Positions 5,760 to 64,000 of a stretch of 64,000 bases of DNA are shown piece after piece. This DNA comes from an uncultured Gammaproteobacteria bacterium. GTDB taxonomy: Bacteria; Patescibacteriota; Patescibacteriia; Magasanikbacterales; UBA922. Position numbers and translations under genes: made by a program. The notes beneath the pieces are model-generated. The model was not told the DNA's origin. It made no database searches and saw only the letters and a list, made by a program, of their open reading frames with translations. Location of the stretch: positions 375,632 through 439,631 of the forward strand of contig CAYFPM010000001.1 in the NCBI GenBank assembly GCA_964345045.1, in the 5' to 3' direction. Within the stretch, counting starts at the first letter, position 1, and each line of letters starts with the position of its first letter.

Positions 5760-6260
5760 ATGCGTATCGTAGACATGTTTAGTTTTCTGTTGTTCCTTTT
5801 GGGGCTTTGTAAAAAAAGTCCGGTACCTCTGTGGTACTTGGAGATCAAGCTCAAAAGACAAAAATTCACTCCTAAGACCCCCGAATGGGCAAAGTGGACG
5901 CCCCTTGAGCCCTGCTGGCATGAGACTGGTAGAGAAAAACGGGGAGCCATAAGTTTCCGAATCAGGGGGGACTTGATTCTGAGGAACGATGGTACGGCCG
6001 TGATCTTGAGCAGAGTTTCTAGTGCTAGGACACTAGAGCTGTGTGCTCTTCACACCGGGCAAGGAGTCCCGAGTGGAGAAGAAGCCAGACTGCGTGACCT
6101 AGCCAAAGATATTTTTTCTCGAGAACTATCTGAAGTGACAATCTCACCAAATCTCACGGCAGCCGGGATCTTTCGATTTGTTCGAGAGGAAAATATGTTT
6201 TCTGCCTATGTAAATGGCATTGCTTGTGAATATCGCCAAGCACGCCAATACGGTCAGTAG
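5760..6260 (+). CDS. GC-rich hypothetical secreted/lipoprotein-like protein (foreign-looking cassette gene)
   Basis: GGAGG 6 nt upstream of ATG 5760; TTGACA-17-TAAGTT promoter at 5702-5730; N-terminal hydrophobic segment ending LLGLC; local GC about 50% vs ~33% in flanks. Confidence 0.4.
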   Translation: MRIVDMFSFLLFLLGLCKKSPVPLWYLEIKLKRQKFTPKTPEWAKWTPLEPCWHETGREKRGAISFRIRGDLILRNDGTAVILSRVSSARTLELCALHTGQGVPSGEEARLRDLAKDIFSRELSEVTISPNLTAAGIFRFVREENMFSAYVNGIACEYRQARQYGQ

Positions 6261-6369
6261 AGTTCCTTGTGTGATCTCTCCACAAAAAAATCACCCAAAA
6301 TCAAAAGAACACCATTATATGGTGTCTTTTTGTATTTGGAATGGAGTGGCTCGGATCCTACTCGAGCCG

Positions 6370-6582
6370 CTAGTGGAGGGGATCGCTGGGGTTGGGACCA
6401 GCTTGATTCTCTCCGAGATGGAGACAACGTAGCTTCCAAGTATTGAAGGCATCTTCTTGCTCCGTCATCGGAGCGGCTCTTCCAGTTCGGAAGTATCCTT
6501 TGCCCTGGAGAGCCTTTCTTATGGTAGCAGAATCGGTTCGAGGAGGTGCCTGCCTTTTTTGGGTAATGGTAGCTTGAGCCAT
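6370..6582 (-). CDS. GC-rich hypothetical small protein (70 aa), convergent with the 5760 gene
   Basis: AAGGAG 9 nt upstream of ATG (minus strand). Minus-strand TTGACA-17-TATAAG promoter lies at ~6625-6660. Confidence 0.3.
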   Translation of the reverse strand: MAQATITQKRQAPPRTDSATIRKALQGKGYFRTGRAAPMTEQEDAFNTWKLRCLHLGENQAGPNPSDPLH

Positions 6583-6709
6583 CCGTGTCTTCTCCTTCTG
6601 GAATGTCTGTGACCATCTGGTCAATTTCCTTATACCAAAAATTATATCACTTGTCAAGAGTATCGGCAAGCTTGAAAGAAAAAATTGCCTATGTTAAGGT
6701 TTAGGCATT

Positions 6710-7795
6710 ATGAATAATGCAGACAAAGAAAAACTGTTTAGATTGGCCTTTTGGGGCTTCTTTTTTGTACTCCTGTTTAACGAAGCTTTGCCTTTTGTAG
6801 CTATTGTTTTGGCAATTTATCTGTTGTACAAAAAATCCAAAGGACAAAATCCAATCCCACCAAGCTTGGGCAAACACTTGCCAGAAGATTGGTATTTAAA
6901 AATTAATAATTATTTTGGTGCCAAAAGTGCCAGAGAAGAAAATATTATGGAAACAATAAGACCAAAAAGTGTAAAAAAATTTAAAGGAGTGGTATTTTTG
7001 GCAATCGTACTCATTGTAATTTTGCCGTTTGTTGGTTCTTTTTTTACGATCATTGATGCTGGTGAAACCGGGGTAAGAAGTTTTTTTGGAAAAGTAAGAG
7101 ACAAAGAATTTTCTTCTGGTTTCCACCTAAAAAATCCTTTGGAAAGAGTTACCAAGATGAATATACGAACCCAAGAGTACACCATGAGTATTGCTCACTC
7201 CGAAGGCAAAAGAGTTGGTGATGATTCTATTGCTGCTCTTACCAAAGAAGGTCTGCAAGTAGATTTGGACATTACCGTATTGTTTAGCTTGGTAGAAAAC
7301 AAAGCTTCCGATGTGTACAAAGAAGTTGGCTTAAGTTACGAAGATGTAATAATTAGACCGCAAATAAGAAGTACGATTCGCGAGGTAATCGCCGAATACC
7401 AAGCCAAAGATATTTATTCGGAAAAACGTCAAGAAGCAGCACAAAAGATTTTGGAAAAATTGAAAAAAAGCGTAGATCCTAGAGGGGTAGAAGTAGAAGA
7501 TGTACTACTTCGAAATGTGCAGTTGCCATCTGGCTTGGCCGAAAGTATCCAAGAAAAATTACAAGCCGAACAAGATGCAGAAAGATATAACTTTGTGCTA
7601 GAAAAAGAAGCCAAAGAAGCCGAGAGAAAAAGAATAGAAGCCGAAGGGCAAAGAGATGCTCAGCAAATAATTAATCAAAGTTTGACTCCTAGATATTTGG
7701 AATTCTTGTACATAAATAGTCTAAAAGACAGAGAAGGCACTATCTATGTCCCAACAAATTCGAACAATGGTTTGCCATTATTTCGTGGTATCTAA
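6710..7795 (+). CDS. SPFH/band-7 domain protein (prohibitin/HflK/C-like)
   Basis: TM anchor then SPFH core (GETGVRSFFGKVRDKEF...LTKEGLQVDLDITVLF...) and C-terminal coiled-coil EAERKRIEAEGQRDAQ. Alternative start at METIRPK (~6949). Confidence 0.75.
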   Translation: MNNADKEKLFRLAFWGFFFVLLFNEALPFVAIVLAIYLLYKKSKGQNPIPPSLGKHLPEDWYLKINNYFGAKSAREENIMETIRPKSVKKFKGVVFLAIVLIVILPFVGSFFTIIDAGETGVRSFFGKVRDKEFSSGFHLKNPLERVTKMNIRTQEYTMSIAHSEGKRVGDDSIAALTKEGLQVDLDITVLFSLVENKASDVYKEVGLSYEDVIIRPQIRSTIREVIAEYQAKDIYSEKRQEAAQKILEKLKKSVDPRGVEVEDVLLRNVQLPSGLAESIQEKLQAEQDAERYNFVLEKEAKEAERKRIEAEGQRDAQQIINQSLTPRYLEFLYINSLKDREGTIYVPTNSNNGLPLFRGI

Positions 7796-7938
7796 AAATT
7801 GACTTGTTGATACTGGCTTGATACAATAGGCGCGCAACTAGGGTGAATAATCTAAGATGGATAAAACATCGTCTGTTGCTGTTTGGATTAGTGTCTAATC
7901 CAAAAAAAGGTCGGTTTAATAAAAAACAAGTACAATTT

Positions 7939-12831: not shown

Positions 12832-13353
12832 TTGATGAAAAAAATCATGGTGAAGGCCTTCGCCATGGCGGCCTTGACCTTGGCTATATACTTCGCCTTC
12901 GCATGGTACTTCGGTACTGTGGAGTCCCTAAGTGTGCACTCCCTCGGGAGGCGTTACTTCGAGGGGGTCTCCACCTCCATCGTGGTATTCTGCGGCTTTG
13001 TGTTTATCTTCTTTCTAGACGATTTCAACACATTTGCCGCCTGGGTAATTGCTGTTTTTACTCCCTTTGGGAGCGTCTGTTCCTGGTTCCTGTTCAGAGT
13101 ATCAGACGAAATGCCCTTAGGTCCCTTAGGAGGTTTCCTCTTTCTTCCGAGTTTCTCCCTTCTCCTAGTCGGGATTTTATCCGATTACGTCGTTAGAAAG
13201 GAGAAGGATGATCAGTACATATCCTTCATGCTTTTGTCTGACAAGGGCTATGTGCTGAAAGAGGTGTCGTATAGGAAGGTGTTCCTCGTCTACCTCGTCG
13301 AGGTGGCGAGCATCTCGATTCCCATATTCCTCCACCTGAGAAGTCTTAGGTAG
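12832..13353 (+). CDS. GC-rich hypothetical 4-TM membrane protein (foreign-looking cassette gene)
   Basis: GGAGG 7 nt upstream of ATG; GC about 50%; hairpin gagtgcttttttt after the stop (~13425-13450); TTGACAAGT at 12651. Confidence 0.45.
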   Translation: MMKKIMVKAFAMAALTLAIYFAFAWYFGTVESLSVHSLGRRYFEGVSTSIVVFCGFVFIFFLDDFNTFAAWVIAVFTPFGSVCSWFLFRVSDEMPLGPLGGFLFLPSFSLLLVGILSDYVVRKEKDDQYISFMLLSDKGYVLKEVSYRKVFLVYLVEVASISIPIFLHLRSLR

Positions 13354-15107: not shown

Positions 15108-15932
15108 TTGATATGTATTATGAAATCTCTAAATGATATTGTAACCCGAGAAATGGAATTAGGCAATTATAGTCAAAAAACAATCAAAACCTATCTTGGG
15201 ATATACCAAGACCTATACAAAAATTTGGGCAAACCCCCAAGAGAAGCAAGTATGGATGAACTAAAAGATTATATCCATCAAAAAACAAAGAAAAATTTAT
15301 CTTCACAAACTATAGCTTTGTATGCCAATGCCATAAATTTTTTGTATATCTCGGTATATAAGAAAAAATCATACGAAAAATTTAAAATGCCTAAAAAGAC
15401 GAAGAAATTACCAGTAGTTTTGAGTAAAAAAGAAATCGAAACAATTGCAGCTCAAACCAAAAATTCAAAACACAAGCTAATGATTTTGTTGGCCTATGCT
15501 GCCGGACTCAGGGTAAGTGAAGTTACCAATTTGCGTGCAAAAGATATAGAATGCGACGAAGCACTGCTTACAATTCGTCAGGGAAAAGGCAAAAAAGATC
15601 GAGTTACAGTATTAAGTAATAAATTAATTGAAGAATTAAGAAGTTTAACTATAAAAAAGAATTCAGATGATTATTTGTTTGAAAGTGAGAGAGGGGGTAA
15701 ACTTACAAATGCAACCCCGCAAAAAGTATTTCAAAAATGTTTGACTAGTGCGCAAATAAAAAAGTCGGCCACCTTTCATAGTCTGCGTCATAGTTTTGCT
15801 ACGCACTTACTAGAAAACGGTGTAGATGTTCGATATGTCCAAGAACTACTCGGTCATGCCAATATTCGTACTACTCAGATATATACCAAAGTAACCAACC
15901 CAGCCATAAAAAATATCCAAAGTCCCTTATGA
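15108..15932 (+). CDS. tyrosine site-specific recombinase (XerC/XerD-like integrase family)
   Basis: C-terminal HSLRHSFATHLLENGVDVRYVQELLGHANIRTTQIYTKV (R...HxxR...Y catalytic signature); N-terminal SAM-like core-binding domain; 4-nt overlap with mnmA. Confidence 0.8.
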   Translation: MICIMKSLNDIVTREMELGNYSQKTIKTYLGIYQDLYKNLGKPPREASMDELKDYIHQKTKKNLSSQTIALYANAINFLYISVYKKKSYEKFKMPKKTKKLPVVLSKKEIETIAAQTKNSKHKLMILLAYAAGLRVSEVTNLRAKDIECDEALLTIRQGKGKKDRVTVLSNKLIEELRSLTIKKNSDDYLFESERGGKLTNATPQKVFQKCLTSAQIKKSATFHSLRHSFATHLLENGVDVRYVQELLGHANIRTTQIYTKVTNPAIKNIQSPL

Positions 15933-29230: not shown

Positions 29231-29590
29231 TCAGGTTTCTTCTTCTACCACTGTATAGGCGGGGAGTTCCCCATTGGGCGATAGGACTTTGATGCGAATC
29301 ATAAATGGGTTTATACAAACTTGGTGGGCATCTGGAACATTGGAGTCTCTCGATACCTCTAGCCATCTACCATCGAACCATCTGCAGATGTATTGTACCG
29401 TTGCCCCCTTGGGTCCATAGAAATCTGTCAGATTCATCTCTGCTTTGGCGCCATGCTCTCCATGAATCTTGACCAGGCAGATAGCATTCCGTCCTTTGAT
29501 AAGAGCCGCCCAACTGACAGATTCCATGAATTCAGCATCAACATAGGTTGCTTTTGTTCCGTCATGGTCGAGGGTAACTTCTATACTCAT
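29231..29590 (-). CDS. GC-rich hypothetical protein (119 aa)
   Basis: ATG at 29588-29590 with GGAG about 10 nt upstream; terminator hairpin immediately after the stop; no recognised motif. Confidence 0.4.
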   Translation of the reverse strand: MSIEVTLDHDGTKATYVDAEFMESVSWAALIKGRNAICLVKIHGEHGAKAEMNLTDFYGPKGATVQYICRWFDGRWLEVSRDSNVPDAHQVCINPFMIRIKVLSPNGELPAYTVVEEET

Positions 29591-29689
29591 GTGGTCAATC
29601 TCCTGTATAAACAAGATTAATTGAGTTATAAGTTTGTGTCAAATAATCCAACTTGAAAATTAGCTATTTTTAGAATAAAATTAGACTAT

Positions 29690-31120: not shown

Positions 31121-31130
31121 AGTATCAATT

Positions 31131-31203
31131 ATCACTATTTTTTTGCTGCGGAATAAGGCTCACTTCGTTCTCGCAAACGTCCTCGCTGCAAAAATAGTGA
31201 TAA
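31131..31203. repeat. 72-bp GC-rich palindromic repeat element, copy 1
   Basis: atcactatttttttgctgcggaataaggctcacttcgttctcgcaaacgtcctcgctgcaaaaatagtgat; internally palindromic; about 95% identical to 32466-32539. Confidence 0.6.
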
Positions 31204-31277: not shown

Positions 31278-32435
31278 ATGAAAAAAGTTTTATTAGTTAC
31301 TTTGGAGCATCCTCCACAGATTGGGGGGATTGCGACTTATTGTCATGATTTGGCAGCGGCTCTGGGCAAAGAAAATGTTGTAGTTTTGGCTCCAGCTGGC
31401 AAAGACAAGTACGCCACGCAAGCAGAAAAATTAGCTTGGGACAAAGAACAACCTTACAAAATTGTACGTAAGCGAATGTTATTGCCAAAGTTTATTTGGC
31501 CTCGTTGGATTTTGTTAGGCTGGCAGCTTTGGCGTACAGCCAAAGAAGAAAATTGTCAGATTGTATTTGTACAACATGTCTTGCCAGTAGGTTATGCCGC
31601 TATTTTTACCAAAATTATTGGCAAAATTCCGTTTTTATTATTTTCTCATGGTACAGATTTGGTAGCTGGTACAGCCAACTGGTGGAAGAAAAAAATGGTA
31701 ACCATGGTTTCGGAACATTCCGAAGAAATTATTTTTAATAGCGAATCACTCAAGCGTCGTTTTTTGCGAGTCTTGTCACAGTTCGAAAGTAAATCTTTGG
31801 TACTTTATCCTTGTCCGGAGCCGGCTTTTTTGGAGCCACCAAACGAGGCAGATTTGTTGGCCTTGCGTGCACAGTATGCGCTAGAAGGTAAAAAAGTTTT
31901 GCTTTCTATTTCTAGATTAACCGATGGTAAGGGGTTCCCACACCTTATAAATATAATGCCCGAGGTTTTGAAAAAAAATCCGAACTTGGTTTGGTTTATC
32001 GTAGGAGATGGACCAAAAAAGAATGAAATTATAAAACATATTAGAGAAAATAATTTACAAAATATTGTTCGTTTTATTGGAGAAATTCCACATATCGCTT
32101 TGCATCAATATTATTATTTGGCAGATCTTTTTGTACTGTTAACTCATCCGGACGAAGGTAAAGAAGAAGGTTTGGGATTGGTATTTTTGGAGGCTTCGGC
32201 AGCGGGTTTGCCTATAGTGGCTGGCAAAAGTGGGGGAGTAGAAGAGGCAGTATTAGACAAACAAACCGGTTTGGTGGTGGACACTCACAATGGTACAGAA
32301 GTGGCGGAAGCAATCTTGGGGATGCTAGAAAACGAGGGGCAAGCCAAACAATTTGGAAATGCTGCTAAAAATAGAATTATTAATGATTTTAATTGGCCAA
32401 AACAAGTGGCAAAGCTAGGTCCTTGGTTAAAATAG
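31278..32435 (+). CDS. glycosyltransferase family 4 (GT-B, group 1)
   Basis: C-terminal EASAAGLPIVAGKSGGVEEAV...GLVVD (EX7E-type GT1 motif). Confidence 0.8.
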   Translation: MKKVLLVTLEHPPQIGGIATYCHDLAAALGKENVVVLAPAGKDKYATQAEKLAWDKEQPYKIVRKRMLLPKFIWPRWILLGWQLWRTAKEENCQIVFVQHVLPVGYAAIFTKIIGKIPFLLFSHGTDLVAGTANWWKKKMVTMVSEHSEEIIFNSESLKRRFLRVLSQFESKSLVLYPCPEPAFLEPPNEADLLALRAQYALEGKKVLLSISRLTDGKGFPHLINIMPEVLKKNPNLVWFIVGDGPKKNEIIKHIRENNLQNIVRFIGEIPHIALHQYYYLADLFVLLTHPDEGKEEGLGLVFLEASAAGLPIVAGKSGGVEEAVLDKQTGLVVDTHNGTEVAEAILGMLENEGQAKQFGNAAKNRIINDFNWPKQVAKLGPWLK

Positions 32436-32465
32436 CCTTATAATTTTGAATTACAGTAGTATCAG

Positions 32466-32539
32466 GAATCACTATTTTTTTGCTGCGGAATAAGGCTCGC
32501 TTCGCTCTCGCAAACGTCCTCGCTGCAAGAATAGTGATT
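32466..32539. repeat. 72-bp GC-rich palindromic repeat element, copy 2
   Basis: gaatcactatttttttgctgcggaataaggctcgcttcgctctcgcaaacgtcctcgctgcaagaatagtgattc; with copy 1 it lies on both sides of the GT4 gene. Confidence 0.6.
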
Positions 32540-43592: not shown

Positions 43593-44006
43593 GTGTCTAT
43601 GACACCCAAAGAAATTGAGAGAAATAGGATTAAATTCCTTTTGGATGTTCTTTCTGTTGATAAGCCCAATGGTTGGAGGGTTCTAGAGATCCCAAAGGAC
43701 AAAAGAGGAAATTGGCTTTGCCAAAGTCCGGGTTCTCCATTTACAAACTTTTCACAATTAAATCCAATATTGAGTGATTTGAGATTTTTTGGTTATCTTG
43801 GTCAAAGAAAATCCAGATCCCCGTGGCACTGGTGGAGGTGGAACCCTTTTACCAAAGAACCTATGGCTGAAAAAAATCCCTATAACGAGGCCTATGCCAA
43901 ACAAAGGAACGCTGCGATTGTAGCATCCAGAGGTAAAAGAGGTGTTCCTTTCCAGGATCCGATTAATTGGAGCCTTATTGATTTTGGGGGAAATAATGGG
44001 GTTTAG
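43593..44006 (+). CDS. hypothetical protein (Trp-rich)
   Basis: Strong AAGGAGG SD 8 nt upstream; 137 aa with SPWHWWRWNPF segment; no recognised family. Confidence 0.4.
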   Translation: MSMTPKEIERNRIKFLLDVLSVDKPNGWRVLEIPKDKRGNWLCQSPGSPFTNFSQLNPILSDLRFFGYLGQRKSRSPWHWWRWNPFTKEPMAEKNPYNEAYAKQRNAAIVASRGKRGVPFQDPINWSLIDFGGNNGV

Positions 44007-55849: not shown

Positions 55850-57610
55850 ATGAAATATCACACCAAACTCACATTCAAGATATATCTACAACATGCTTTG
55901 CGCTACAAGCTAATGTTTTTTGTAATACTTGCTAGTGCTGTTTTTGCTTCTGTTTCAGATTTGGTAGCTCCATTTTTGTATAAAGAATTTTTTGATATCC
56001 TTACAGATTCAAGCATTACAGAGGCAAAAGCTGAACTGATAAGAATTCTACTTTTTATTCTGGGGATTCACATGCTTACTACTTTGTTTTGGCGAATTAG
56101 TTTTTTTACCAACAACAGATTTCAACCAAAGGTGATGGCAGATTTGGCCAACACTTGTTTTGCATATTTGCACAAGCATTCTTTTTCATTTTTCAACAAT
56201 AATTTTGTAGGTTCTCTGGTCAAAAGAGTAAACCGTTTTTATAGAGCTTTTGAAGCTTTGTCAGATCGGTTAATGTTTGACCTCTTGAAACTAGCTATCG
56301 AAGTAACAGTAATTACTGCTGTTTTGTTTACAAAAAGTGTAATCCTCGGTATTTCAATTTTACTTTGGACGATACTTTTTGTAGCTTTGAATTATTTTTA
56401 TAGTGTTTTCAAATTAAAATACGATATAGAGCGTAGCGAACAAGACACCAAAGTAACTGGTGTTTTGGCAGATTCTGTAACCAATCAATCAAACATAAAA
56501 CTTTTTGCAGGGTACGATAGAGAAAGAAAAAGATTTGGTTCTGTAACAGAAGAGCTGCGTAGATTAAGAACCTTAACTTGGGATTTGGGGCAAATTGCCG
56601 AGTCTGTGCAGATTTTGCTTATGATTGCTCTTGAAGTGATCTTAATGTACTTTGCCATAGGTTTGTGGGAACAAGGCGTTTTGAGTATTGGAGACTTTGT
56701 GTTATTGCAGGCTTACCTAATGTCTTTGTTTAACCATATTTGGAGCTTTGGTCGTATTATAAGAGACTTTTACGAGCAGCTTGCCGATGCCGAAGAAATG
56801 ACTGTAATACTCGACACGCCACACGAAGTAAAGGACAAAAAAAGAGCTGGTTTGCTAGATGTAAAAAAAGCCAAAATAAAGTTTGATAATGTGGATTTTT
56901 ATTATCATAAAACTCGCAAGGTTATTGATAAATTAAAACTTATTATAAAACCAGGAGAGAAAGTGGCTTTGGTAGGACCTTCGGGAGCTGGTAAATCTAC
57001 TATAATAAAACTTTTACTTAGAATACACGATGTTTCTGGTGGTAAAATTTTTATTGATGAACAAAATATTGCCAATGTGAGTCAAGATAGTTTGCACCAA
57101 GCCATTAGTTTAGTTCCTCAAGATCCGATTTTATTTCATAGAACATTGCTCGAAAATATTAGGTATGCCAAACCAAATGCTACAGAAGAAGAAGTTATAA
57201 AAGCAGCAGAATTGGCTCATTGTCACGAATTTATCAAGGATTTCCCAGAAGGTTACAACACTTATGTTGGAGAAAGAGGGGTAAAATTGTCTGGTGGAGA
57301 AAGACAGAGAGTAGCTATTGCTAGAGCAATTTTGAGCAATAGCCCAATTTTAATTTTGGACGAAGCTACATCTAGTCTTGATTCAGAATCAGAAAAATTG
57401 ATTCAAGATGCACTGGACCAACTAATGAAGAAAAAAACAGTAATCGTTGTGGCTCATAGATTGTCTACTATTATGAAAATGGATAGAATTCTTGTAGTAG
57501 AAGGAGGTAAAATAGTAGAACAAGGTTCTCACAAAGAACTGTTAAAGAAGAAAAAAGGCATCTATAGTCGTTTGTGGAAATACCAAGCCGGTGGATTTAC
57601 AAAGACTTAA
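55850..57610 (+). CDS. ABC transporter, fused permease/ATP-binding exporter (MsbA-like type I)
   Basis: 6-TM domain then GPSGAGKST, LSGGERQRVAIARA, ILILDEATSSLD; GGAAGGAGGG SD; two GC hairpins (ccccacattctggtgggg, ccacccaacccgggtgggtgg) in the leader. Confidence 0.9.
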   Translation: MKYHTKLTFKIYLQHALRYKLMFFVILASAVFASVSDLVAPFLYKEFFDILTDSSITEAKAELIRILLFILGIHMLTTLFWRISFFTNNRFQPKVMADLANTCFAYLHKHSFSFFNNNFVGSLVKRVNRFYRAFEALSDRLMFDLLKLAIEVTVITAVLFTKSVILGISILLWTILFVALNYFYSVFKLKYDIERSEQDTKVTGVLADSVTNQSNIKLFAGYDRERKRFGSVTEELRRLRTLTWDLGQIAESVQILLMIALEVILMYFAIGLWEQGVLSIGDFVLLQAYLMSLFNHIWSFGRIIRDFYEQLADAEEMTVILDTPHEVKDKKRAGLLDVKKAKIKFDNVDFYYHKTRKVIDKLKLIIKPGEKVALVGPSGAGKSTIIKLLLRIHDVSGGKIFIDEQNIANVSQDSLHQAISLVPQDPILFHRTLLENIRYAKPNATEEEVIKAAELAHCHEFIKDFPEGYNTYVGERGVKLSGGERQRVAIARAILSNSPILILDEATSSLDSESEKLIQDALDQLMKKKTVIVVAHRLSTIMKMDRILVVEGGKIVEQGSHKELLKKKKGIYSRLWKYQAGGFTKT

Positions 57611-57651
57611 CAAAAAGCTATACTTAGGTAGATTATAAGTTAATAAACATT

Positions 57652-57686
57652 GATTACGCAGATTATTTTAAGATTACACAGATTTG
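57652..57686. promoter_or_regulatory. tandem GATTAC(G/A)CAGATT motif (2 direct copies, 21 bp apart)
   Basis: gattacgcagatt at 57652 and gattacacagattt at 57673, about 100 nt upstream of the lipoprotein operon. Confidence 0.4.
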
Positions 57687-57784
57687 AATTGATTTAATCC
57701 CTCAATGTTTACATTGGAAAATAATAATTATTCAAGTTTATACCCTGTTTCTTACGGTGGGTATATTCATTTAATAGTCTACCT

Positions 57785-58384
57785 ATGTATATGGCTAAAA
57801 ATTTACACAAGAATAACAAGTATGGATTACTGGTTCTGTTATCAGTAGTTTTTTTATTATCTGGCTTTGGTTGCAATAGCAAAGACAATGTAGAAAAAGA
57901 AACAATGACTGGAAAAATGGAATTGGGTGAGTTTGTAGGGGATATGCAAACAAAAGAAAAAATGGAAGAAAGTACAGTTTCTACAGATAAAATGATGAAG
58001 AAATTTAATGGAACAGAAACCGGAATGATGATGACAAAAACAGATTATCAGTACGAAGGCTTTTTGGAAGATGTAAGTGGAGGAAATGCTTCTGGTGTCG
58101 CCAAAGCTAGTTTTGAGGATGGAACTTACAAATTGTTAGCTAGTTTTTCCGATTTGCCACCACTTGAAAAAGATTATTTTTACGAAGGTTGGGTAGTCAG
58201 AAAAAATCCATTCGATTTTATTAGTACCGGAGCTGCCAAAAATATGGGGGGAATATACAACAATCTTTATCAATCCGATCAAAATCTAACAGATTATGAT
58301 TTTTATGTGCTTACCTTGGAACCGGACGATGGAGACCCTGCTCCGGCAGCTCATATAGTAGAGGGAACAATGAAGAAAAAATAA
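57785..58384 (+). CDS. hypothetical lipoprotein
   Basis: Signal peptide with lipobox LLSGFGC; Met/Lys-rich mature region. Confidence 0.5.
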   Translation: MYMAKNLHKNNKYGLLVLLSVVFLLSGFGCNSKDNVEKETMTGKMELGEFVGDMQTKEKMEESTVSTDKMMKKFNGTETGMMMTKTDYQYEGFLEDVSGGNASGVAKASFEDGTYKLLASFSDLPPLEKDYFYEGWVVRKNPFDFISTGAAKNMGGIYNNLYQSDQNLTDYDFYVLTLEPDDGDPAPAAHIVEGTMKKK

Positions 58385-58391
58385 TTAGTAA

Positions 58392-59057
58392 ATGAAATTT
58401 CGGCAACAAAAAAATTTAATATTGCTTCTAACACTATTTTTGGGTACGGTTGCACTGTATCTTTGGTTTGCCGATAGCCAATATTATCAAGAATTTATTA
58501 TTTGGATTGAGAGTAATATGTTACTTTTTTTCTCGATCCTTTTTTTAATAAAATTTTTGGGGCTAGTTTGGCCGCCAATACCCGGAGGGGTACTTACCTT
58601 GGGAGCAATCCCTATTATTGGTTGGCAAAAAGCTTTTTTGATAGATTTTTTGGGAGAGTTAGCCGGTAGTGTAGTAGCTTATTATTTGGCTTTGTATTGG
58701 GGAGAGACTTTGGTAAAAAAGGTGGTAGATAAAAAAAATTACGAAAAGATCAAAAATTTTAAAGTAAAAAAGAATAGAGAATTTGAGTTGGTATTTTTGC
58801 TTAGAGTATTTGGGGGGACTCTAATAGAAATAGTTTGTTATGCAGCTGGTCTTATGAAAGTCAAATTCAAACCTTTTTTCTTGGCTTCTTTTATTGGTTA
58901 TGCATTGGTTGGTTCATTTACTTTTTACTTTGCAGGGGCTGCTATCCAAAGAGAAAATCTATTAGTCAATACATTTTTACTAATTGTGGCTGCCGTTATA
59001 TTTATTTCTTTTCGAAAGAGATATTTTGAGCTTAATAGCCTAAATAAGAAAAAATAA
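58392..59057 (+). CDS. DedA/TVP38/TMEM64-family membrane protein
   Basis: VWPPIPGGVLTLGAIPIIG and ...LLRVFGGTLIEIVCYAAGLMKVKF re-entrant-loop motifs. Confidence 0.7.
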   Translation: MKFRQQKNLILLLTLFLGTVALYLWFADSQYYQEFIIWIESNMLLFFSILFLIKFLGLVWPPIPGGVLTLGAIPIIGWQKAFLIDFLGELAGSVVAYYLALYWGETLVKKVVDKKNYEKIKNFKVKKNREFELVFLLRVFGGTLIEIVCYAAGLMKVKFKPFFLASFIGYALVGSFTFYFAGAAIQRENLLVNTFLLIVAAVIFISFRKRYFELNSLNKKK

Positions 59058-59058
59058 T

Positions 59059-59508
59059 ATGAGCAAAAAAGTAATTATAATTTTTTTATTAGGAATTTCT
59101 TTTTTGATTGCTTTTTGGTTGATTTCGCCTCTTTTTATAGACAAAGAAGTAAATGAAAGTTTAACAGATATATTAGGGGAAAATGAAGATTTGGAAGTAA
59201 TTTCAAAAGGTGATTTTGTAGGATTGGATAATCATAGAGCTACAGGGACTGCCACACTGCTAAAATCAAATGAGAATTATTTTATTAGATTTGAAGATGA
59301 TTTTGATATTACCAATGGTCCGGATCTGTTTGTAGATCTGGGAAAAAGTGGTCAACATGATTCAGAAGCAAGATTAGGTAAATTAAAGGGGAGTATTGGT
59401 AGCCAAAATTATAAAATTCCAACGGATTTAAATATAGATGAGTACAATGAAGTTTGGGTGTGGTGCCGAGCTTTTTCTGTGCCATTTGGAAAAGTAACTT
59501 TTAAATAA
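59059..59508 (+). CDS. DM13-domain protein (membrane-anchored)
   Basis: TM anchor; GTATLLKS...YFIRFE...ITNGPDLFVDLG...YNEVWVWCRAFSVPFG. Confidence 0.45.
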   Translation: MSKKVIIIFLLGISFLIAFWLISPLFIDKEVNESLTDILGENEDLEVISKGDFVGLDNHRATGTATLLKSNENYFIRFEDDFDITNGPDLFVDLGKSGQHDSEARLGKLKGSIGSQNYKIPTDLNIDEYNEVWVWCRAFSVPFGKVTFK

Positions 59509-59512
59509 TTTT

Positions 59513-60373
59513 ATGCATAAGAAAGAAATTATCAAGAATATAGCCAGAGGTTTTGTAATGGGGAGTGCCGATGTCGTTCCTGGAGTTTCTGGTGGAACTA
59601 TGGCACTTATATTGGGGATTTATGAAAAATTAATAAATTCAATTAGAACTATAAACAAAAAAACTTTAAAACTTTTTTTTAATTTCAAATGGAAAGTTTT
59701 TTTCAAAGAAATCCCAACTATTTTTTTGGGTTCTTTGGCTTTTGGGATACTCTTGGCAGTTTTTACTTTGGCCAAACCAATCGAATGGTTACTAGATCAC
59801 AATCCTAGTTTGGTTTGGGCGTTTTTCTTTGGTTTGGTCTTGGCTTCTATACTTGTGGTAAAAAATAGAATAAAAACTCATTCTTTTTATACGCTGATCG
59901 TGTTTTTGATAGGAGTTGTAGTGGCTTACATTATTGCCGGTCTCTTGCCGGCCGAGACAGCTGCTACTCCGATTTTGTTTTTTATTTCCGGAGCAATCGC
60001 TATTTCGGCTATGATTTTGCCTGGTATTTCTGGATCATTTTTGCTGGTTATAATGGGCAAATACGAACAAGTTCTTTCGGCAGTTAATAATAGAGAAATA
60101 GATACTCTTTTTATTTTTTTATGTGGAATTATTGTAGGTTTACTTTTGTTTGCCAAGTTTTTGTCTTGGCTTTTGCATAATTATCATGATTTAACCATGG
60201 CTACTTTGGTAGGACTTATGTTTGGTTCATTACGCAAGATTTGGCCGTGGAAAATTGGCGAAGCCAATATTGTTCCAACTGATTTTTCTATAAATAATTT
60301 TTATTTGCTTTTGCTTGTCATTTTGGGAATGGCGACGGTTTTTCTTTTGCAAAAGTTAGCAAACAACAAGTAA
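59513..60373 (+). CDS. DUF368-family membrane protein (putative polyprenyl-phosphate transporter)
   Basis: Duplicated (V/I)PG(V/I)SG(G/S) motif: VVPGVSGGTMALILG and ILPGISGSFLLVIMG. Confidence 0.8.
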   Translation: MHKKEIIKNIARGFVMGSADVVPGVSGGTMALILGIYEKLINSIRTINKKTLKLFFNFKWKVFFKEIPTIFLGSLAFGILLAVFTLAKPIEWLLDHNPSLVWAFFFGLVLASILVVKNRIKTHSFYTLIVFLIGVVVAYIIAGLLPAETAATPILFFISGAIAISAMILPGISGSFLLVIMGKYEQVLSAVNNREIDTLFIFLCGIIVGLLLFAKFLSWLLHNYHDLTMATLVGLMFGSLRKIWPWKIGEANIVPTDFSINNFYLLLLVILGMATVFLLQKLANNK

Positions 60374-60377
60374 TTTT

Positions 60378-61271
60378 ATGAAGAAATTATCTAAAGAAAG
60401 AGTAGGAGAATTAAATTTGTTGGGGACAGCTGTTTTGTGGTCTTTTTTCCCAATTATTTCTATTTTGATTATTTCAGGACTCGCACCTTTGGCTGCGGCT
60501 GCTGTTAGTACTTTTTTTTCTACTTTTTTCTTTCTTTTGATCATGATCAAAAAAAGATTGTTTGCAGAGTTAAAAATAAAAGAAGCTTGGCCAGATATAC
60601 TAAAAGCTACTTTTATTATAGGATTTTTGGTTTATTTTTTTATCTTTATAGGTTTAAAATTTACTAGTGCCGGCAACATGATTATTATATCCCAATCAGA
60701 ATCCTTGTTTGCCATTTTTATAATGTATTATTGGAAAGGAGAAAAACTTACCAGACCTCAACTCTATGGAGCCTTACTTATGCTTCTGGGGGTTGGGTTG
60801 GTTCTTTACAACGGGGCTTTTGAATTGAATAGGGGAGATGTATTGGTTCTTTTGGCTGCGGCCGTAGCTCCGGTTGGAAATTATTATGCCAAAAGAGTAA
60901 TGAGATTGGTTAGTAGTCATACTCTAATGTTTGTAAGAAGTATTATTAGTTTTATCTTGTTATTTTTTTCTGCCCTTCTTTTGGAAGGTATGCCAAGCTT
61001 TTCGGCTATTGAAGCTTCGTTATTGTTTTTGTTAATAAATGGTTTTTTGCTTTTAGGATATTCCAAACATTTGTGGTTAGAAGGCTTGAGAAGATTGTCT
61101 GTTTCCAAAGCTACCGCCATGATGCCGATTATTCCAGCTTTTACCTTGCTCTTTGCTATTCCTATCTTAGGTCAAATTCCTACTATTTATCATCTTTTGG
61201 GTTTGGTGATTATTATTTTTGGTCTGTATCTTATTACATTTAACAATGGTAAATTACCAAAAACAACTTGA
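60378..61271 (+). CDS. EamA/DMT-family transporter
   Basis: 297 aa, 10 TM helices arranged as two EamA repeats. Confidence 0.7.
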   Translation: MKKLSKERVGELNLLGTAVLWSFFPIISILIISGLAPLAAAAVSTFFSTFFFLLIMIKKRLFAELKIKEAWPDILKATFIIGFLVYFFIFIGLKFTSAGNMIIISQSESLFAIFIMYYWKGEKLTRPQLYGALLMLLGVGLVLYNGAFELNRGDVLVLLAAAVAPVGNYYAKRVMRLVSSHTLMFVRSIISFILLFFSALLLEGMPSFSAIEASLLFLLINGFLLLGYSKHLWLEGLRRLSVSKATAMMPIIPAFTLLFAIPILGQIPTIYHLLGLVIIIFGLYLITFNNGKLPKTT

Positions 61272-61290: not shown

Positions 61291-61854
61291 ATGAAATTAA
61301 AATTAACTATCTTGCTTGGTACTGCCAGAGAAGGTAGACAAAGCGAAAACGTGGCCAAGTTTGTAGAAACAGAGGCCAAAAAATTGGATAATGTAGAAAT
61401 TACTTATGTAGATGTAAAGGATCACCCTATGACAGCTACAGTGCCAAACTGGCAACCTGGTTTGGCCGAACCATCTGCTTGGTCAAAAATCGCCAAAGAG
61501 TCTGATGGTTTTATATTTGTAGTGCCAGAATATAATCATAGTTTTCCTGGGGAATTTAAGCTCCTTTTTGATACGGCTTTTGAAGAATATAAGCACAAAC
61601 CAGTAGCTATAGTACCAGTGTCTTCTGGTGGGTTTGGTGGTACTAGACTGGTAGAAACTTTGCAAAATGTATTGATAGAAACTGGGGCGATTCCGGTTTC
61701 TACAGTTTGGAATGTGTCCAAAGTGGGGGATATGTTTGATGAGTCTGGTAAAGTGATAGATGAAAAAGCTTCGGGGAGACTTAAAAAAGTTTTGGATGAA
61801 CTAGTTTGGTTTGGAAGAATTATGAAAGAAGCAAGAGAGAAACAGGTAAAATAA
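61291..61854 (+). CDS. NADPH-dependent FMN reductase family flavoprotein
   Basis: LTILLGTAREGRQSE, FIFVVPEYNHSFPGEFKLLFD flavodoxin-like motifs; terminator aacatctgatgaggatgtt at ~61862. Confidence 0.8.
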   Translation: MKLKLTILLGTAREGRQSENVAKFVETEAKKLDNVEITYVDVKDHPMTATVPNWQPGLAEPSAWSKIAKESDGFIFVVPEYNHSFPGEFKLLFDTAFEEYKHKPVAIVPVSSGGFGGTRLVETLQNVLIETGAIPVSTVWNVSKVGDMFDESGKVIDEKASGRLKKVLDELVWFGRIMKEAREKQVK

Positions 61855-61935
61855 AAAACATCTGATGAGGATGTTTGGATAGTTGGTTTTTCAAGCTTCG
61901 AGGAGATCGTGACCTCCCCGAAGCTTGTAGCTTGA

Positions 61936-62070
61936 TCAGCCTTTTCGGACGTTGCCGCATTTCGTGCAGACGTAGTCCCTGCCGCTTTGGTCATGATCCG
62001 TGTCATCGTAGCAGTTAGTGCAGTACAGCGTGACTGCTTTGTATAGGGCTATCGCGATGAGCTTGATCAT
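61936..62070 (-). CDS. GC-rich small zinc-ribbon protein (44 aa)
   Basis: MIKLIAIALYKAVTLYCTNCYDDTDHDQSGRDYVCTKCGNVRKG (CxxC-x17-CxxC); AAGGAG 6 nt upstream; followed by long hairpin caagcttcgaggag...ctccccgaagcttg. Confidence 0.35.
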   Translation of the reverse strand: MIKLIAIALYKAVTLYCTNCYDDTDHDQSGRDYVCTKCGNVRKG

Positions 62071-62140
62071 TTCTTCTCCTTCGCTCCCAATGTTGTGGGG
62101 AGCTGAGGAGATCTTATTGTATTTTTTTGATTTTGTCAAT

Positions 62141-62209
62141 ATGTATTTAGAAATTAAAAAAGACCTTCGCAATTTAGCACACCTAGAAAAGAAAAAGCTA
62201 TACAAGTAG
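62141..62209 (+). pseudogene. truncated duplicate of the alkD 5' end (22 codons then stop)
   Basis: aaaaaagaccttcgcaatttagcacacctagaaaagaaaaag is about 90% identical to 62858-62900 at the start of intact alkD; encodes MYLEIKKDLRNLAHLEKKKLYK*. Confidence 0.5.
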
Positions 62210-62335
62210 TTTTTTAAGATTGGAAAATGGCACTATGCTGAGGACGTAAATATGTCACAGACAGACGCTTGACAAATGATTAATAACCTTTTATCTTTTA
62301 AGCGGATCAATAGATCCCCATAGGAAGGAGAAATC

Positions 62336-62668
62336 GTGCAAAATCTGGAAACCTCTAGAAAAGATCTGGAGAGTACCTACAAGGCCTACTATAGGGCCCT
62401 CCGGGGGAGAGACCAAAAAGAATCCCTCACGCCGGAGAGATTCATGCAGATCATGGGAGGGGGGCCAAACTCGGGTCAGGAGCTTCGCCTCAAAGGAGGA
62501 GATGATCCCAAGTTGGTCCAGGCCGTAGTAAAGGCCGTTCAGGTCTATACTTCTGCCGTCCAGAGTCACAATGCCTCAGTGGGGGATAGGTACGTCGTGA
62601 ACCTCAATGACCCCGTCTCGCGAGGCCTGGCCGATGACGCACCTGGCCGGTACAGGTACCGACGGTAG
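62336..62668 (+). CDS. GC-rich hypothetical protein (110 aa) on an inserted cassette
   Basis: GTG start with AGGAAGGAG SD; TTGACA-17-TATCTT promoter at ~62269; 10-bp-stem hairpin cccagagtgc...gcactctggg at 62684-62719; GC over 55%. Confidence 0.45.
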   Translation: MQNLETSRKDLESTYKAYYRALRGRDQKESLTPERFMQIMGGGPNSGQELRLKGGDDPKLVQAVVKAVQVYTSAVQSHNASVGDRYVVNLNDPVSRGLADDAPGRYRYRR

Positions 62669-62732
62669 CTCGAATTCAAGAATCCCAGAGTGCATGAATA
62701 ATTTTCAGGCACTCTGGGAGATCGATCATTAT

Positions 62733-62762
62733 TTTGTAAATATAAAAATTCATATTTACAAA
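62733..62762. promoter_or_regulatory. perfect 11-bp inverted repeat upstream of alkD (operator-like)
   Basis: tttgtaaatat-aaaaattc-atatttacaaa. Confidence 0.4.
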
Positions 62763-62840
62763 ATAATAAGATAGTTTAATTTTTTATTTTTTCGTATAGT
62801 ATTTTTCTGTGCTAGTCGAGGTATTTACTTAAAAGTTTTT

Positions 62841-63548
62841 ATGAGTGTAGCAAAAATAAAAAAAGACCTTCGCAATCTAGCAGACCCAGAAAGAAAAAAA
62901 GTTTATGAGTGGTTTTTTAAGACTGGTCGAGGCCAATATGGGGAAGGGGATAAATTTTTGGGAGTAGTGATGCCAAACATTCGTAAAGTTGCCAAAAATT
63001 ATGTAGAAATGGATTTAGAGAATATAGAAAAGATTTTACAATCTTCATTTCACGAAGATCGGATGTGTGCTTTGGTAATAATGACTTATAAATTTAAAAA
63101 AGTTGATGAAAAAGAACAGAAGAAAATTTATAATTCTTATCTAAAACATATAAAAAAGTATGTAAATAATTGGGATTTGGTAGATGTAAGTGCCCATAAG
63201 ATTGTGGGGGAGTATTTGTTAGACAAAGATAGGAATATACTTTACAAATTAGCTAAATCAAAAAATTTGTGGGAAAGACGAGTAGCAATTGTAGCTACTT
63301 ATCAATTTATAAAAAATAAAGAATTGGAAGATACTTTGAAAATATCAAAAATATTGCTAGAAGATAGTCATGATCTAATCCACAAAGCTGTGGGGTGGAT
63401 GTTGCGAGAGGCTGGGAAAAAAGATGTAAAAGTTTTGGAAAAATTTTTGAAAAAATATTATAAAAAAATGCCACGGACTATGCTTCGTTATTCAATAGAA
63501 AAATTCCCAGAAAAAATTAGAAAAGATTATTTGGTTGGTAAGATATAA
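62841..63548 (+). CDS. DNA alkylation repair protein (AlkD/AlkC-like HEAT-repeat glycosylase family)
   Basis: LRNLADPERKKVYEWFFKTG..., WDLVDVSA, WERRVAIVATY HEAT-like repeats typical of AlkD. Confidence 0.7.
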   Translation: MSVAKIKKDLRNLADPERKKVYEWFFKTGRGQYGEGDKFLGVVMPNIRKVAKNYVEMDLENIEKILQSSFHEDRMCALVIMTYKFKKVDEKEQKKIYNSYLKHIKKYVNNWDLVDVSAHKIVGEYLLDKDRNILYKLAKSKNLWERRVAIVATYQFIKNKELEDTLKISKILLEDSHDLIHKAVGWMLREAGKKDVKVLEKFLKKYYKKMPRTMLRYSIEKFPEKIRKDYLVGKI

Positions 63549-63629: not shown

Positions 63630-64000
63630 ATGTGTATTGAAAAGAGTGAGGTTTTGTCGGGTGGGTACCCTATGTTGGCTTATTTGCCTAGGCAAACAAA
63701 CTCTCAGTTTCAAGATCCTCAAAGACTCTTGATTTTTCATGGAGGTATCCCTTGTGCCCCCATGGAGGTTCTAATGCGCCACGCCGCTCATCGGTTGGGG
63801 TATACCAGTCTATGGGTAGGAAGAGGTCGTCAAAGAGAAGAGGCTCTTTGGTTGTATGATTTGGGACAAGCTGCAAATGGCTTGGGTTATGATTCTCAAT
63901 ATTTGCATAGAGCAAGTCACCTCAGTTTCAGCATGGGATCTTGTTTTGCCCTGCGTGCTATTTTGCATTTTGGTGGAGCCAATTCTTTATATGCCCTGCA
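63630..64000 (+). CDS. GC-rich alpha/beta-hydrolase-like protein, 5' partial (runs off window)
   Basis: GGAGG 9 nt upstream of ATG 63630; manual translation MCIEKSEVLSGGYPMLAYLP...LLIFHGG...SFSMGSCFAL (HGG oxyanion and GxSxG-like nucleophile elbow); GC about 50%. Confidence 0.4.
   Translation, partial: MCIEKSEVLSGGYPMLAYLPRQTNSQFQDPQRLLIFHGGIPCAPMEVLMRHAAHRLGYTSLWVGRGRQREEALWLYDLGQAANGLGYDSQYLHRASHLSFSMGSCFALRAILHFGGANSLYAL

Follow-up and report, generated by a model that had tools for sequence, protein, structure and literature searches.

In the window, by which we mean the whole 64-kb stretch of DNA that was analysed, a set of small GC-rich reading frames surrounds an intact alkD gene. The layout across the locus is zn44 (minus strand); P', the alkD stub, orf110 and module 1; P, alkD, orf318 and module 2; and a cupredoxin gene (minus strand). 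The features, with their coordinates in the window, are as follows:

61291–61854, plus strand: FMN_red, an NADPH-dependent FMN reductase and the left native flank (PF03358, E = 9.8e-29)
61892–61927, no strand: GC-rich hairpin 1, directly 3' of zn44, with 17-nt arms that are 88% complementary
61936–62070, minus strand: zn44, an ORF of 44 aa whose product has a hydrophobic helix at the N-terminus and a CxxC..CxxC zinc ribbon, preceded by a strong Shine-Dalgarno (SD) sequence
62112–62140, plus strand: sequence preceding the stub, with weak similarity to that preceding the resident alkD (62792–62827)
62141–62251, plus strand: pseudogene stub of the alkD 5' end, with an ORF of 22 codons and in-frame homology reaching to about 62251
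62269–62297, plus strand: match to a sigma-70-like promoter (TTGACA-17-TATCTT), preceding orf110
62336–62668, plus strand: orf110, a 110-aa ORFan with a GTG start, an AGGAGA SD 5 nt upstream and a GC content of 0.56
62677–62791, plus strand: 3' module copy 1, a stretch of about 115 nt that follows orf110, homologous to the one after orf318
62792–62840, plus strand: AT-rich region upstream of the resident alkD, weakly similar to 62112–62149
62841–63548, plus strand: the resident, intact alkD, of the DNA alkylation repair glycosylase family (PF08713, E = 9.1e-66)
63630–64000, plus strand: 5' part of orf318 (318 aa; it runs past the window end), a GC-richer ORFan with a GGAGG SD

The locus is no assembly chimera, because the same sequence is found in independent assemblies: two pipelines and four sequencing runs independently gave contigs that are identical at this locus, and nine contigs from the four runs agree across it except for one mismatch. 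All contigs with the locus come from one project, and across the nine no polymorphism of the source population is seen beyond that mismatch. The contig breaks in one of the runs look like low coverage.

The resident alkD is a full-length match to PF08713 (222 bits, cut-off 21; profile positions 1–213 of 213 covered), is host-like in composition (GC 0.30, CAI 0.72) and has thousands of homologues at 50–66% identity. The nearest of these, P0003 (65% amino acid identity), is encoded on Logan contig L170, which is syntenic with the locus over six genes whose products share 53% (VTT), 52% (VCA0040-like), 75% (FMN_red), 65% (AlkD), 59% (cupredoxin) and 72% (UvrD-like) amino acid identity. The first-pass annotation had proposed a search for an alkD without the insert, and L170 supplies one: the stop codon of FMN_red and the ATG of alkD are separated by 15 nt, and the stop codons of alkD and cupredoxin by 28 nt. 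Because FMN_red and alkD stand so close together in this contig, it represents, on gene order, the empty site for the FMN_red–alkD insert, and the 986 nt at 61855–62840 (including 62792–62840, which is likewise missing) are lineage-specific. This single syntenic relative is distant, and insertion was told apart from deletion by composition and not by phylogeny. Inspection of the gene contexts of five alkD homologues revealed synteny for P0003 alone (L170/L171). An alkD search of genome contigs returned 80 loci, none of which is syntenic or exceeds 60% identity, and the best identity in an FMN_red search of metagenomes was 46%. Also without counterpart in the L170 region are orf318, an ABC transporter, a 199-aa ORF, DM13 and EamA; this chromosomal stretch, which lies downstream of the ATP synthase operon, is a hot spot that has gained several genes and in which turnover between the two relatives is high.

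Composition and content of the GC-rich reading frames

The host baseline, taken from the 74 called genes of the window, is a GC3 of 0.32 ± 0.09 and a CAI of 0.68 ± 0.08, and of 52 long host ORFs only 2 have an SD-like 5-mer. By these measures zn44 (GC 0.52, GC3 0.71, CAI 0.36–0.38) and orf110 (GC1/2/3 of 0.62/0.42/0.65, CAI 0.40) are compositionally foreign, and their GC1 > GC2 < GC3 pattern would fit coding DNA from a donor of about 55–60% GC. Both carry SD sequences of the GAAGGAGAA type at proper spacing; the GC content of orf318 is 0.454. Among the 74 window genes, hardly any carries an SD motif apart from eight small outliers that have no Pfam match and show higher GC or lower CAI. These eight are mutually unrelated, and three of them sit around alkD.

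The first-pass annotation had described the 110-aa frame as a GC-rich gene with its own promoter, SD and hairpin. The reading frame, its AGGAGA and the hairpin at 62683–62719 stand; a promoter-like match is present as well, but such matches in the region number no more than is expected from shuffles, which makes the one upstream of orf110 weak evidence. The 44-aa GC-rich zinc-ribbon gene that it placed on the opposite strand was recovered as zn44.

Database searches with orf110 yielded no match in Pfam, PHROG, PADLOC or NCBIfam, and a k-mer search found only the protein itself. An exhaustive HMMER search over 1.84 billion representatives returned orf110 and three spurious matches to repeat proteins, one an Ig-like invasin repeat protein and two TPR-STAND proteins. 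These were rejected: their folds are unrelated, and their E-values are inflated by the summing of 5–7 weak repeats of ~28% identity. The AF2 model of orf110 is helical with a pLDDT of 54, too poor for a fold search. For zn44, a k-mer search gave no homologue, Pfam gave sub-threshold matches to zinc-ribbon families only (OrfB_Zn_ribbon is not among the matches at E ≤ 1), and comparison with the PDB gave only generic zinc ribbons; in appearance zn44 looks like a generic zinc ribbon. The region of orf110 and zn44 has no similarity to viral contigs, plasmids or phages, and the other reading frames of the insert match nothing in Pfam. Thus, orf110 and zn44 appear to be without credible homologue in the public protein collections searched. 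The two proteins were found nowhere else in those collections. No match to orf318 was obtained from Pfam, PADLOC, NCBIfam, the PDB, plasmids or viruses. Between orf110 and orf318 there is no DNA or protein similarity, and the idea that orf110 is what decay has left of an orf318 copy was rejected.

In AT-rich genomes, islands of high GC content are in many cases RNAs, and here the GC-rich blocks, taken with their hairpins, fold at z = −4.1 and z = −5.8 (hairpin 1, with a fold energy of −26.3 kcal/mol, at z = −6.1). The blocks could on this basis be structured non-coding RNAs, or remnants of TnpB/IS605-type elements with a zinc ribbon and terminal hairpins, instead of protein genes. Without the hairpins, however, the ORF bodies are no more stably folded than shuffled sequences (z = −1.9, −0.7 and −1.05), and comparison with Rfam 15 gave nothing at gathering thresholds for the window and only noise at E ≤ 10 for 61700–62900; the structured-RNA form of this reading was rejected on these two results. 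The codon-position GC pattern and the SD spacing also fit coding sequence. For the TnpB form, the evidence is a tentative lead, a pair of weak PADLOC matches of zn44 to Cas12f (E = 0.0039) and Cas12u4 (E = 0.037), which cover the ribbon part only and are equalled in score by generic ribbons. The locus resembles IS200/IS605 elements with TnpB in this CxxC..CxxC ribbon, in the GC-rich hairpins at block ends and in having no short target-site duplication, and differs from them in having no RuvC motif, no TnpA and no frame of TnpB length; none of the frames of the insert has a TnpB-like translation, and the Pfam OrfB_Zn_ribbon family is unmatched, with other zinc-ribbon families scoring equally. 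We therefore regard either form as hardly probable.

Several short sequences recur in and around the blocks. The arms of hairpin 1 repeat a 13-mer of the FMN_red coding sequence (61766–61778) in both orientations, for three occurrences in all, with a local-alignment significance of only p about 0.01. The insert has three copies of the heptamer GGAGATC, located at block ends or close to them, and the whole window has 8 against 3.3 expected. An 11-mer, AAAATAAAAAA, occurs at the FMN_red stop, in alkD codons 5–8 and, inverted, in module 1.

Two interleaved repeat pairs

The 5' end of alkD is duplicated 703 nt upstream of the gene. Positions 62151–62237 and 62854–62940 form an ungapped alignment of 87 nt with 78% identity, whose core of 39 nt (62151–62189 against 62854–62892) reaches 89.7%; by BLAST the match is 73 nt at 82% (E = 1.4e-16). 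A gapped local alignment reaches 62251 against 62955 (~100 nt, one gap) and scores 50, compared to 10.8 ± 1.4 in shuffles (maximum 17). The repeat corresponds in frame to codons 5–38 of alkD, and the start codons of the stub and the resident gene align with a one-codon indel. The duplicate reported earlier at 62158–62200 is therefore borne out at about twice the length first noted, and its similarity is above chance. Beyond the aligned part no further downstream similarity was found, and the end of FMN_red has no similarity to the region upstream of the resident alkD. Within the repeat lies an 18-nt identical core, AAAAAAGACCTTCGCAAT, of a kind that a conserved coding block would give as well.

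The upstream copy opens with an ATG at 62141 and, as annotated before, ends after 22 codons in a TAG (62207–62209), which occupies the position of W24 in alkD (TGG to TAG). In addition to this change from tryptophan to stop, seven conserved residues are replaced in the stub (P, T, three G, D and K). Over 34 codons, the differences between the stub and the resident gene fall 7/8/13 by codon position. The stub DNA matches the resident alkD at 68 of 87 positions, and 80 other alkD genes at no more than 54 (median 47); the stub protein is only marginally nearer to the resident (19/31) than to other AlkD N-termini (17–18/31). With L170 alkD as the outgroup, the stub and the resident gene are sisters (in the first 60 nt they are 78% identical to each other and ~54% identical to L170), and since their split at least 12 changes in 102 nt are stub-derived and at least 7 resident-derived. 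The stretch at 62141–62251 thus combines in-frame similarity to alkD, the resident gene as closest relative and disabling changes, and is an alkD-derived pseudogene. Comparison of the copies indicates that the stub really derives from alkD, with the resident copy as its nearest relative. Because the two copies are only about 72–78% identical (22–28% diverged), have changed on both lineages and differ by hits at conserved residues, the stub is an old, decaying pseudogene fragment and no fresh footprint.

A second repeat pair is located 3' of the two ORFans. Module copy 1 comprises a GC hairpin (62683–62719), a GATC..ATCA element, an AT-rich 40-nt palindrome (62728–62767) and a T-run (62780–62790); the stem of the hairpin is the perfect 11-bp inverted repeat that the first-pass annotation had picked out. 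Copy 2 follows the orf318 stop codon on contig L083, at 7764–7868 (window-equivalent ~64604–64708, beyond the window end). The pair is ~71% identical, BLAST alone reports 18 nt (E = 0.005), and a permissive-gap score is equally high at one unrelated low-complexity site at 12.6 kb. This site was rejected as a third copy of the module, as its similarity is of low complexity and it has no GC arm. Two patterns taken from the orf318 copy, ATCCC[N0-1]GAGTGCA and the 14-mer TAAATATAAAAATT, occur once each in the 64-kb window (expected counts of 0.00 and 0.65), and both fall in 62682–62750 in the same order. We accept the two modules as homologous because of this rare GC-rich arm and the collinearity. 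Both copies fold as two tandem hairpins, and the arms differ by a compensatory A/T insertion that preserves the stem.

At the other end, the stretch at 62112–62140 is similar to the region upstream of the resident alkD with a local score of 14.5, which is marginal against shuffles (p about 0.03–0.05). It may tentatively mark the 5' end of the first copy of a duplicated unit, and 62792–62840 is proposed as the start of the second. The resulting order is a-X-b-a'-Y-b', with both pairs in the same orientation and of similar divergence, as a tandem duplication would yield; this order carries the signature of a duplicated unit and not of a target-site duplication. Because two repeat pairs are interleaved, what was duplicated would be the whole alkD unit and not a target site.

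Campbell-type insertion-duplication and homology-facilitated illegitimate recombination occur in naturally transformable bacteria and require no dedicated recombinase. By either route, the former through a single crossover, a small circular or linear DNA with orf110 and a short alkD 5' fragment of a diverged relative could have inserted in one step at the alkD 5' end and regenerated the target. The geometry, with a truncated copy upstream, an intact copy downstream and the insert between them, fits such an event, as does the foreign DNA that lies beside a duplicated target segment, and no recombinase would be needed. Moreover, the stub keeps the consensus K18 and K30 where the resident has R, which fits two alleles better than pure decay. 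Against this, the stub, in which conserved sites have undergone non-conservative changes, is clearly a pseudogene, so that much of the divergence is decay; zn44, outside the repeat, is left unaccounted for; and the likeness of module 1 to the region after orf318 would be explained only by a donor with the same unit, in which case this reading merges with the duplication of the whole alkD unit. The locus also differs from a Campbell-type product in its 22–28% diverged repeats and in having no vector or plasmid backbone. We consider a one-step insertion of this kind unlikely. Recombination with a cassette-bearing relative, which the first-pass annotation offered as one of two possibilities, is compatible with the data.

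Tests for mobile elements

The other possibility it offered was a site-specific or duplicative insertion with the target regenerated, brought about by an unrecognised mobilisation mechanism. As it had noted, there is no transposase or integrase, a statement that holds for ~6 kb on either side of the locus. The only recombinase in the 64-kb window is a Xer-like tyrosine recombinase at 15120–15932, 46 kb away, and the recombinase gene expected of a site-specific integrative element is thus absent within ~6 kb. Neither the called genes of the whole window nor six-frame pieces of the insert match a transposase Pfam family, and the block ends display no terminal inverted repeats and no identical target-site duplication of 2–14 bp. 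The flanking repeat (87–100 nt, 72–78% identical) is far longer than the target-site duplication of a transposase. A diversity-generating retroelement finds no reverse transcriptase among the called genes, and the substitutions are of all types. Overall, no evidence of mobility was found, and the searched collections appear to hold no second copy of the locus and no mobile-element context for it. Given that no recombinase is near, that the repeat is long and diverged, that zn44 lies outside it, that there is no second copy and that the module pair brackets alkD and orf318, the insertion with target regeneration is not supported in the form proposed earlier.

A different form of mobility is suggested by the modules. 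Two unrelated ORFs end in the same hairpin-containing module, whose stem survives the insertion in one arm, and small ORFans are typical of integrons. At 31–32.5 kb of the window, a glycosyltransferase gene is flanked by 81-nt hairpin repeats that are 93% identical, one of them at 31121–31201. Taken together, these could be cassettes with a common 3' recombination module (orf110 with its module, orf318 with its module and maybe the glycosyltransferase), moved in an integron-like or Xer-dependent manner by a recombinase acting in trans, for example the Xer-like one at 15.1 kb. The likeness to integron cassettes and attC sites, including integrase-less attC clusters, lies in the small atypical ORFans, each followed by an imperfect palindromic module common to unrelated ORFs. 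In contrast to such systems, no IntI gene and no attC array were found; there are only two module copies in ~70 kb, and they flank a housekeeping-type gene; and the ORFs carry their own promoter-like and SD sequences. By eye, the attC pair of R'' (RYYYAAC) and R' (GTTRRRY) is not present: copy 1 lacks the consensus, and the GTTRRRY-like motif of copy 2, GTTGGAT, occurs only after orf318 and has no complementary R''. The ORFs and modules were found nowhere else searched, and cassettes of this type do not predict an alkD stub. We judge this reading improbable.

Origin of the locus

The explanation that we prefer, with a probability of slightly more than one half (about 0.55), is that the locus is a passive evolutionary mosaic produced by ordinary genome flux, an old partial duplication combined with horizontally acquired DNA, and no working element. 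The ancestral order would have been FMN_red, alkD and cupredoxin with spacers of 15 and 28 nt, as kept in L170. After the split from the L170 lineage, zn44, orf110 and orf318 would have been gained around alkD, probably by illegitimate recombination, from one or more donors that were GC-richer and used SD sequences. The whole alkD unit, from a short upstream region and the alkD 5' end up to and including the hairpin module that follows the downstream ORF, would then have been duplicated, either as an intrachromosomal tandem or by unequal or illegitimate recombination with DNA of a diverged relative; on this account a single duplication gave rise to both repeat pairs. The redundant upstream unit would subsequently have decayed, with deletion of the alkD body leaving a stub of ~110 nt that contains a premature TAG and is now linked to orf110 and module 1, and the downstream unit would have retained intact alkD, orf318 and module 2. 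We infer this order of events from the arrangement of the repeats.

Tandem (segmental) duplication followed by pseudogenisation is matched at the locus by two collinear repeat pairs in the same orientation, with one copy intact and host-like and the other truncated, with a premature stop and relaxed substitutions. It is not matched by the interiors of the units, orf110 in one and the alkD body with orf318 in the other. The main weakness of the preferred explanation lies here: orf110 and orf318 occupy equivalent positions and are unrelated, so that a pure tandem duplication needs reciprocal deletions (or an additional deletion or replacement) or two diverged haplotypes. Other points against it are the marginal homology upstream of the start, the weak similarity of the modules by BLAST alone and the reliance on composition, with one distant syntenic relative, to tell insertion from deletion.

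A more far-reaching proposal, to which we assign very little probability, would treat the SD-bearing GC-rich ORFans (8 of the 74 genes, with three around alkD) as cassettes that are recombinase-independent or mobilised in trans. Their 3' hairpin modules, both that of orf110 and orf318 and the 81-nt repeats, would serve as recombination sites, insertion would duplicate ~80–100 nt of the target, and the donor could possibly be a GC-richer partner organism. If the 3' hairpin module were indeed a recombination site, the locus would matter much more.

As a passive mosaic, the locus would offer a view of a redundant alkD copy caught in the middle of decay in a poorly sampled, AT-rich bacterium with a small genome, and would be a new instance of known processes. 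In addition, SD motifs mark the foreign genes here almost perfectly, and in lineages that do without SD sequences they provide an inexpensive and independent indicator of recent horizontal transfer.

Shine-Dalgarno use and compositional outliers

Shine-Dalgarno (SD) sites are almost unused in this genome, as judged from the window, where they precede only 2 of 52 long ORFs. Across the whole window, the SD motifs that are present precede small ORFs that lack Pfam domains and have either raised GC content or a low CAI. A comparison of the outlier ORFs of the window among themselves revealed no relationship between any of them.

Outlier ORFs in the window (SD motif plus GC/CAI, except where stated)
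5760-6260, SD-preceded ORF
6254-6616, minus strand, SD-preceded ORF
12835-13353, SD-preceded ORF
29231-29614, minus strand, ORF without an SD motif, flagged on composition (GC/CAI)
43599-44006, SD-preceded ORF
around alkD, the SD-preceded ORFs zn44 (zinc ribbon), orf110 and orf318

The last of these, orf318, encodes 318 amino acids with a GC content of 0.45 and the SD sequence GGAGG; it occupies window positions 63630-64000 and continues onward, and its coordinates in L083, the contig that runs past the window end, are 6790-7746. No match was found in Pfam, PADLOC, NCBIfam, the PDB, or plasmid and viral sequences. The gene is absent from the syntenic relative L170, in which alkD abuts a cupredoxin gene.

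Short recurrences and hairpin repeats

Several short sequences recur in and around the insert that separates FMN_red from alkD. The 13-mer AAGCTTCGGGGAG lies within the FMN_red coding sequence (61766-61778) and again in both arms of the GC-rich hairpin 3' of zn44 (61893-61905 and 61914-61926), where one copy is direct with 1 mismatch and the other is inverted and perfect. This recurrence could reflect chance (p about 0.01), alternative RNA pairing, or the trace of a template switch. The heptamer GGAGATC has three of its eight window copies inside the insert (61902, 62107, and 62717). Two of these sit where a GC-rich block meets an AT-rich one, and the other lies midway through the hairpin 3' of zn44. 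Three of the six TTTTTTATTTT/AAAATAAAAAA 11-mers are located at the FMN_red stop (61848-61858), in the hairpin-containing module after orf110 (62780-62790), and at alkD codons 5-8 (62853-62863). Both the heptamers and the 11-mers may be microhomologies exploited in rearrangements, or may be due to chance.

A pair of direct repeats of 81 nt, 93% identical to each other, brackets a glycosyltransferase gene, and each copy folds into a long hairpin (z=-3.0). The gene order is flippase (unrelated), repeat, GT4, repeat, GT2; the repeats are the window's second instance of one hairpin module ending unrelated adjacent genes.

Repeat-bracketed gene
31121-31201, 81-nt repeat
31278-32435, GT4 glycosyltransferase gene
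32458-32538, 81-nt repeat

Recombinase, coupling ATPase and gene-content turnover

The sole recombinase in the window is Xer-like, and a coupling ATPase is also encoded. Further genes are missing from L170 in the compared region, 55850-61271.

Recombinase, coupling ATPase, and genes missing from L170
3225-5237, VirD4/TrwB-like coupling ATPase
15120-15932, Xer-like tyrosine recombinase, 270 aa (Phage_int_SAM_4 and Phage_integrase)
55850-57610, ABC transporter, SD GGAGG, missing
57785-58384, 199-aa ORF, missing
59059-59508, DM13 gene, missing
60378-61271, EamA gene, missing

Gene content changes at a hot spot downstream of the ATP synthase operon.
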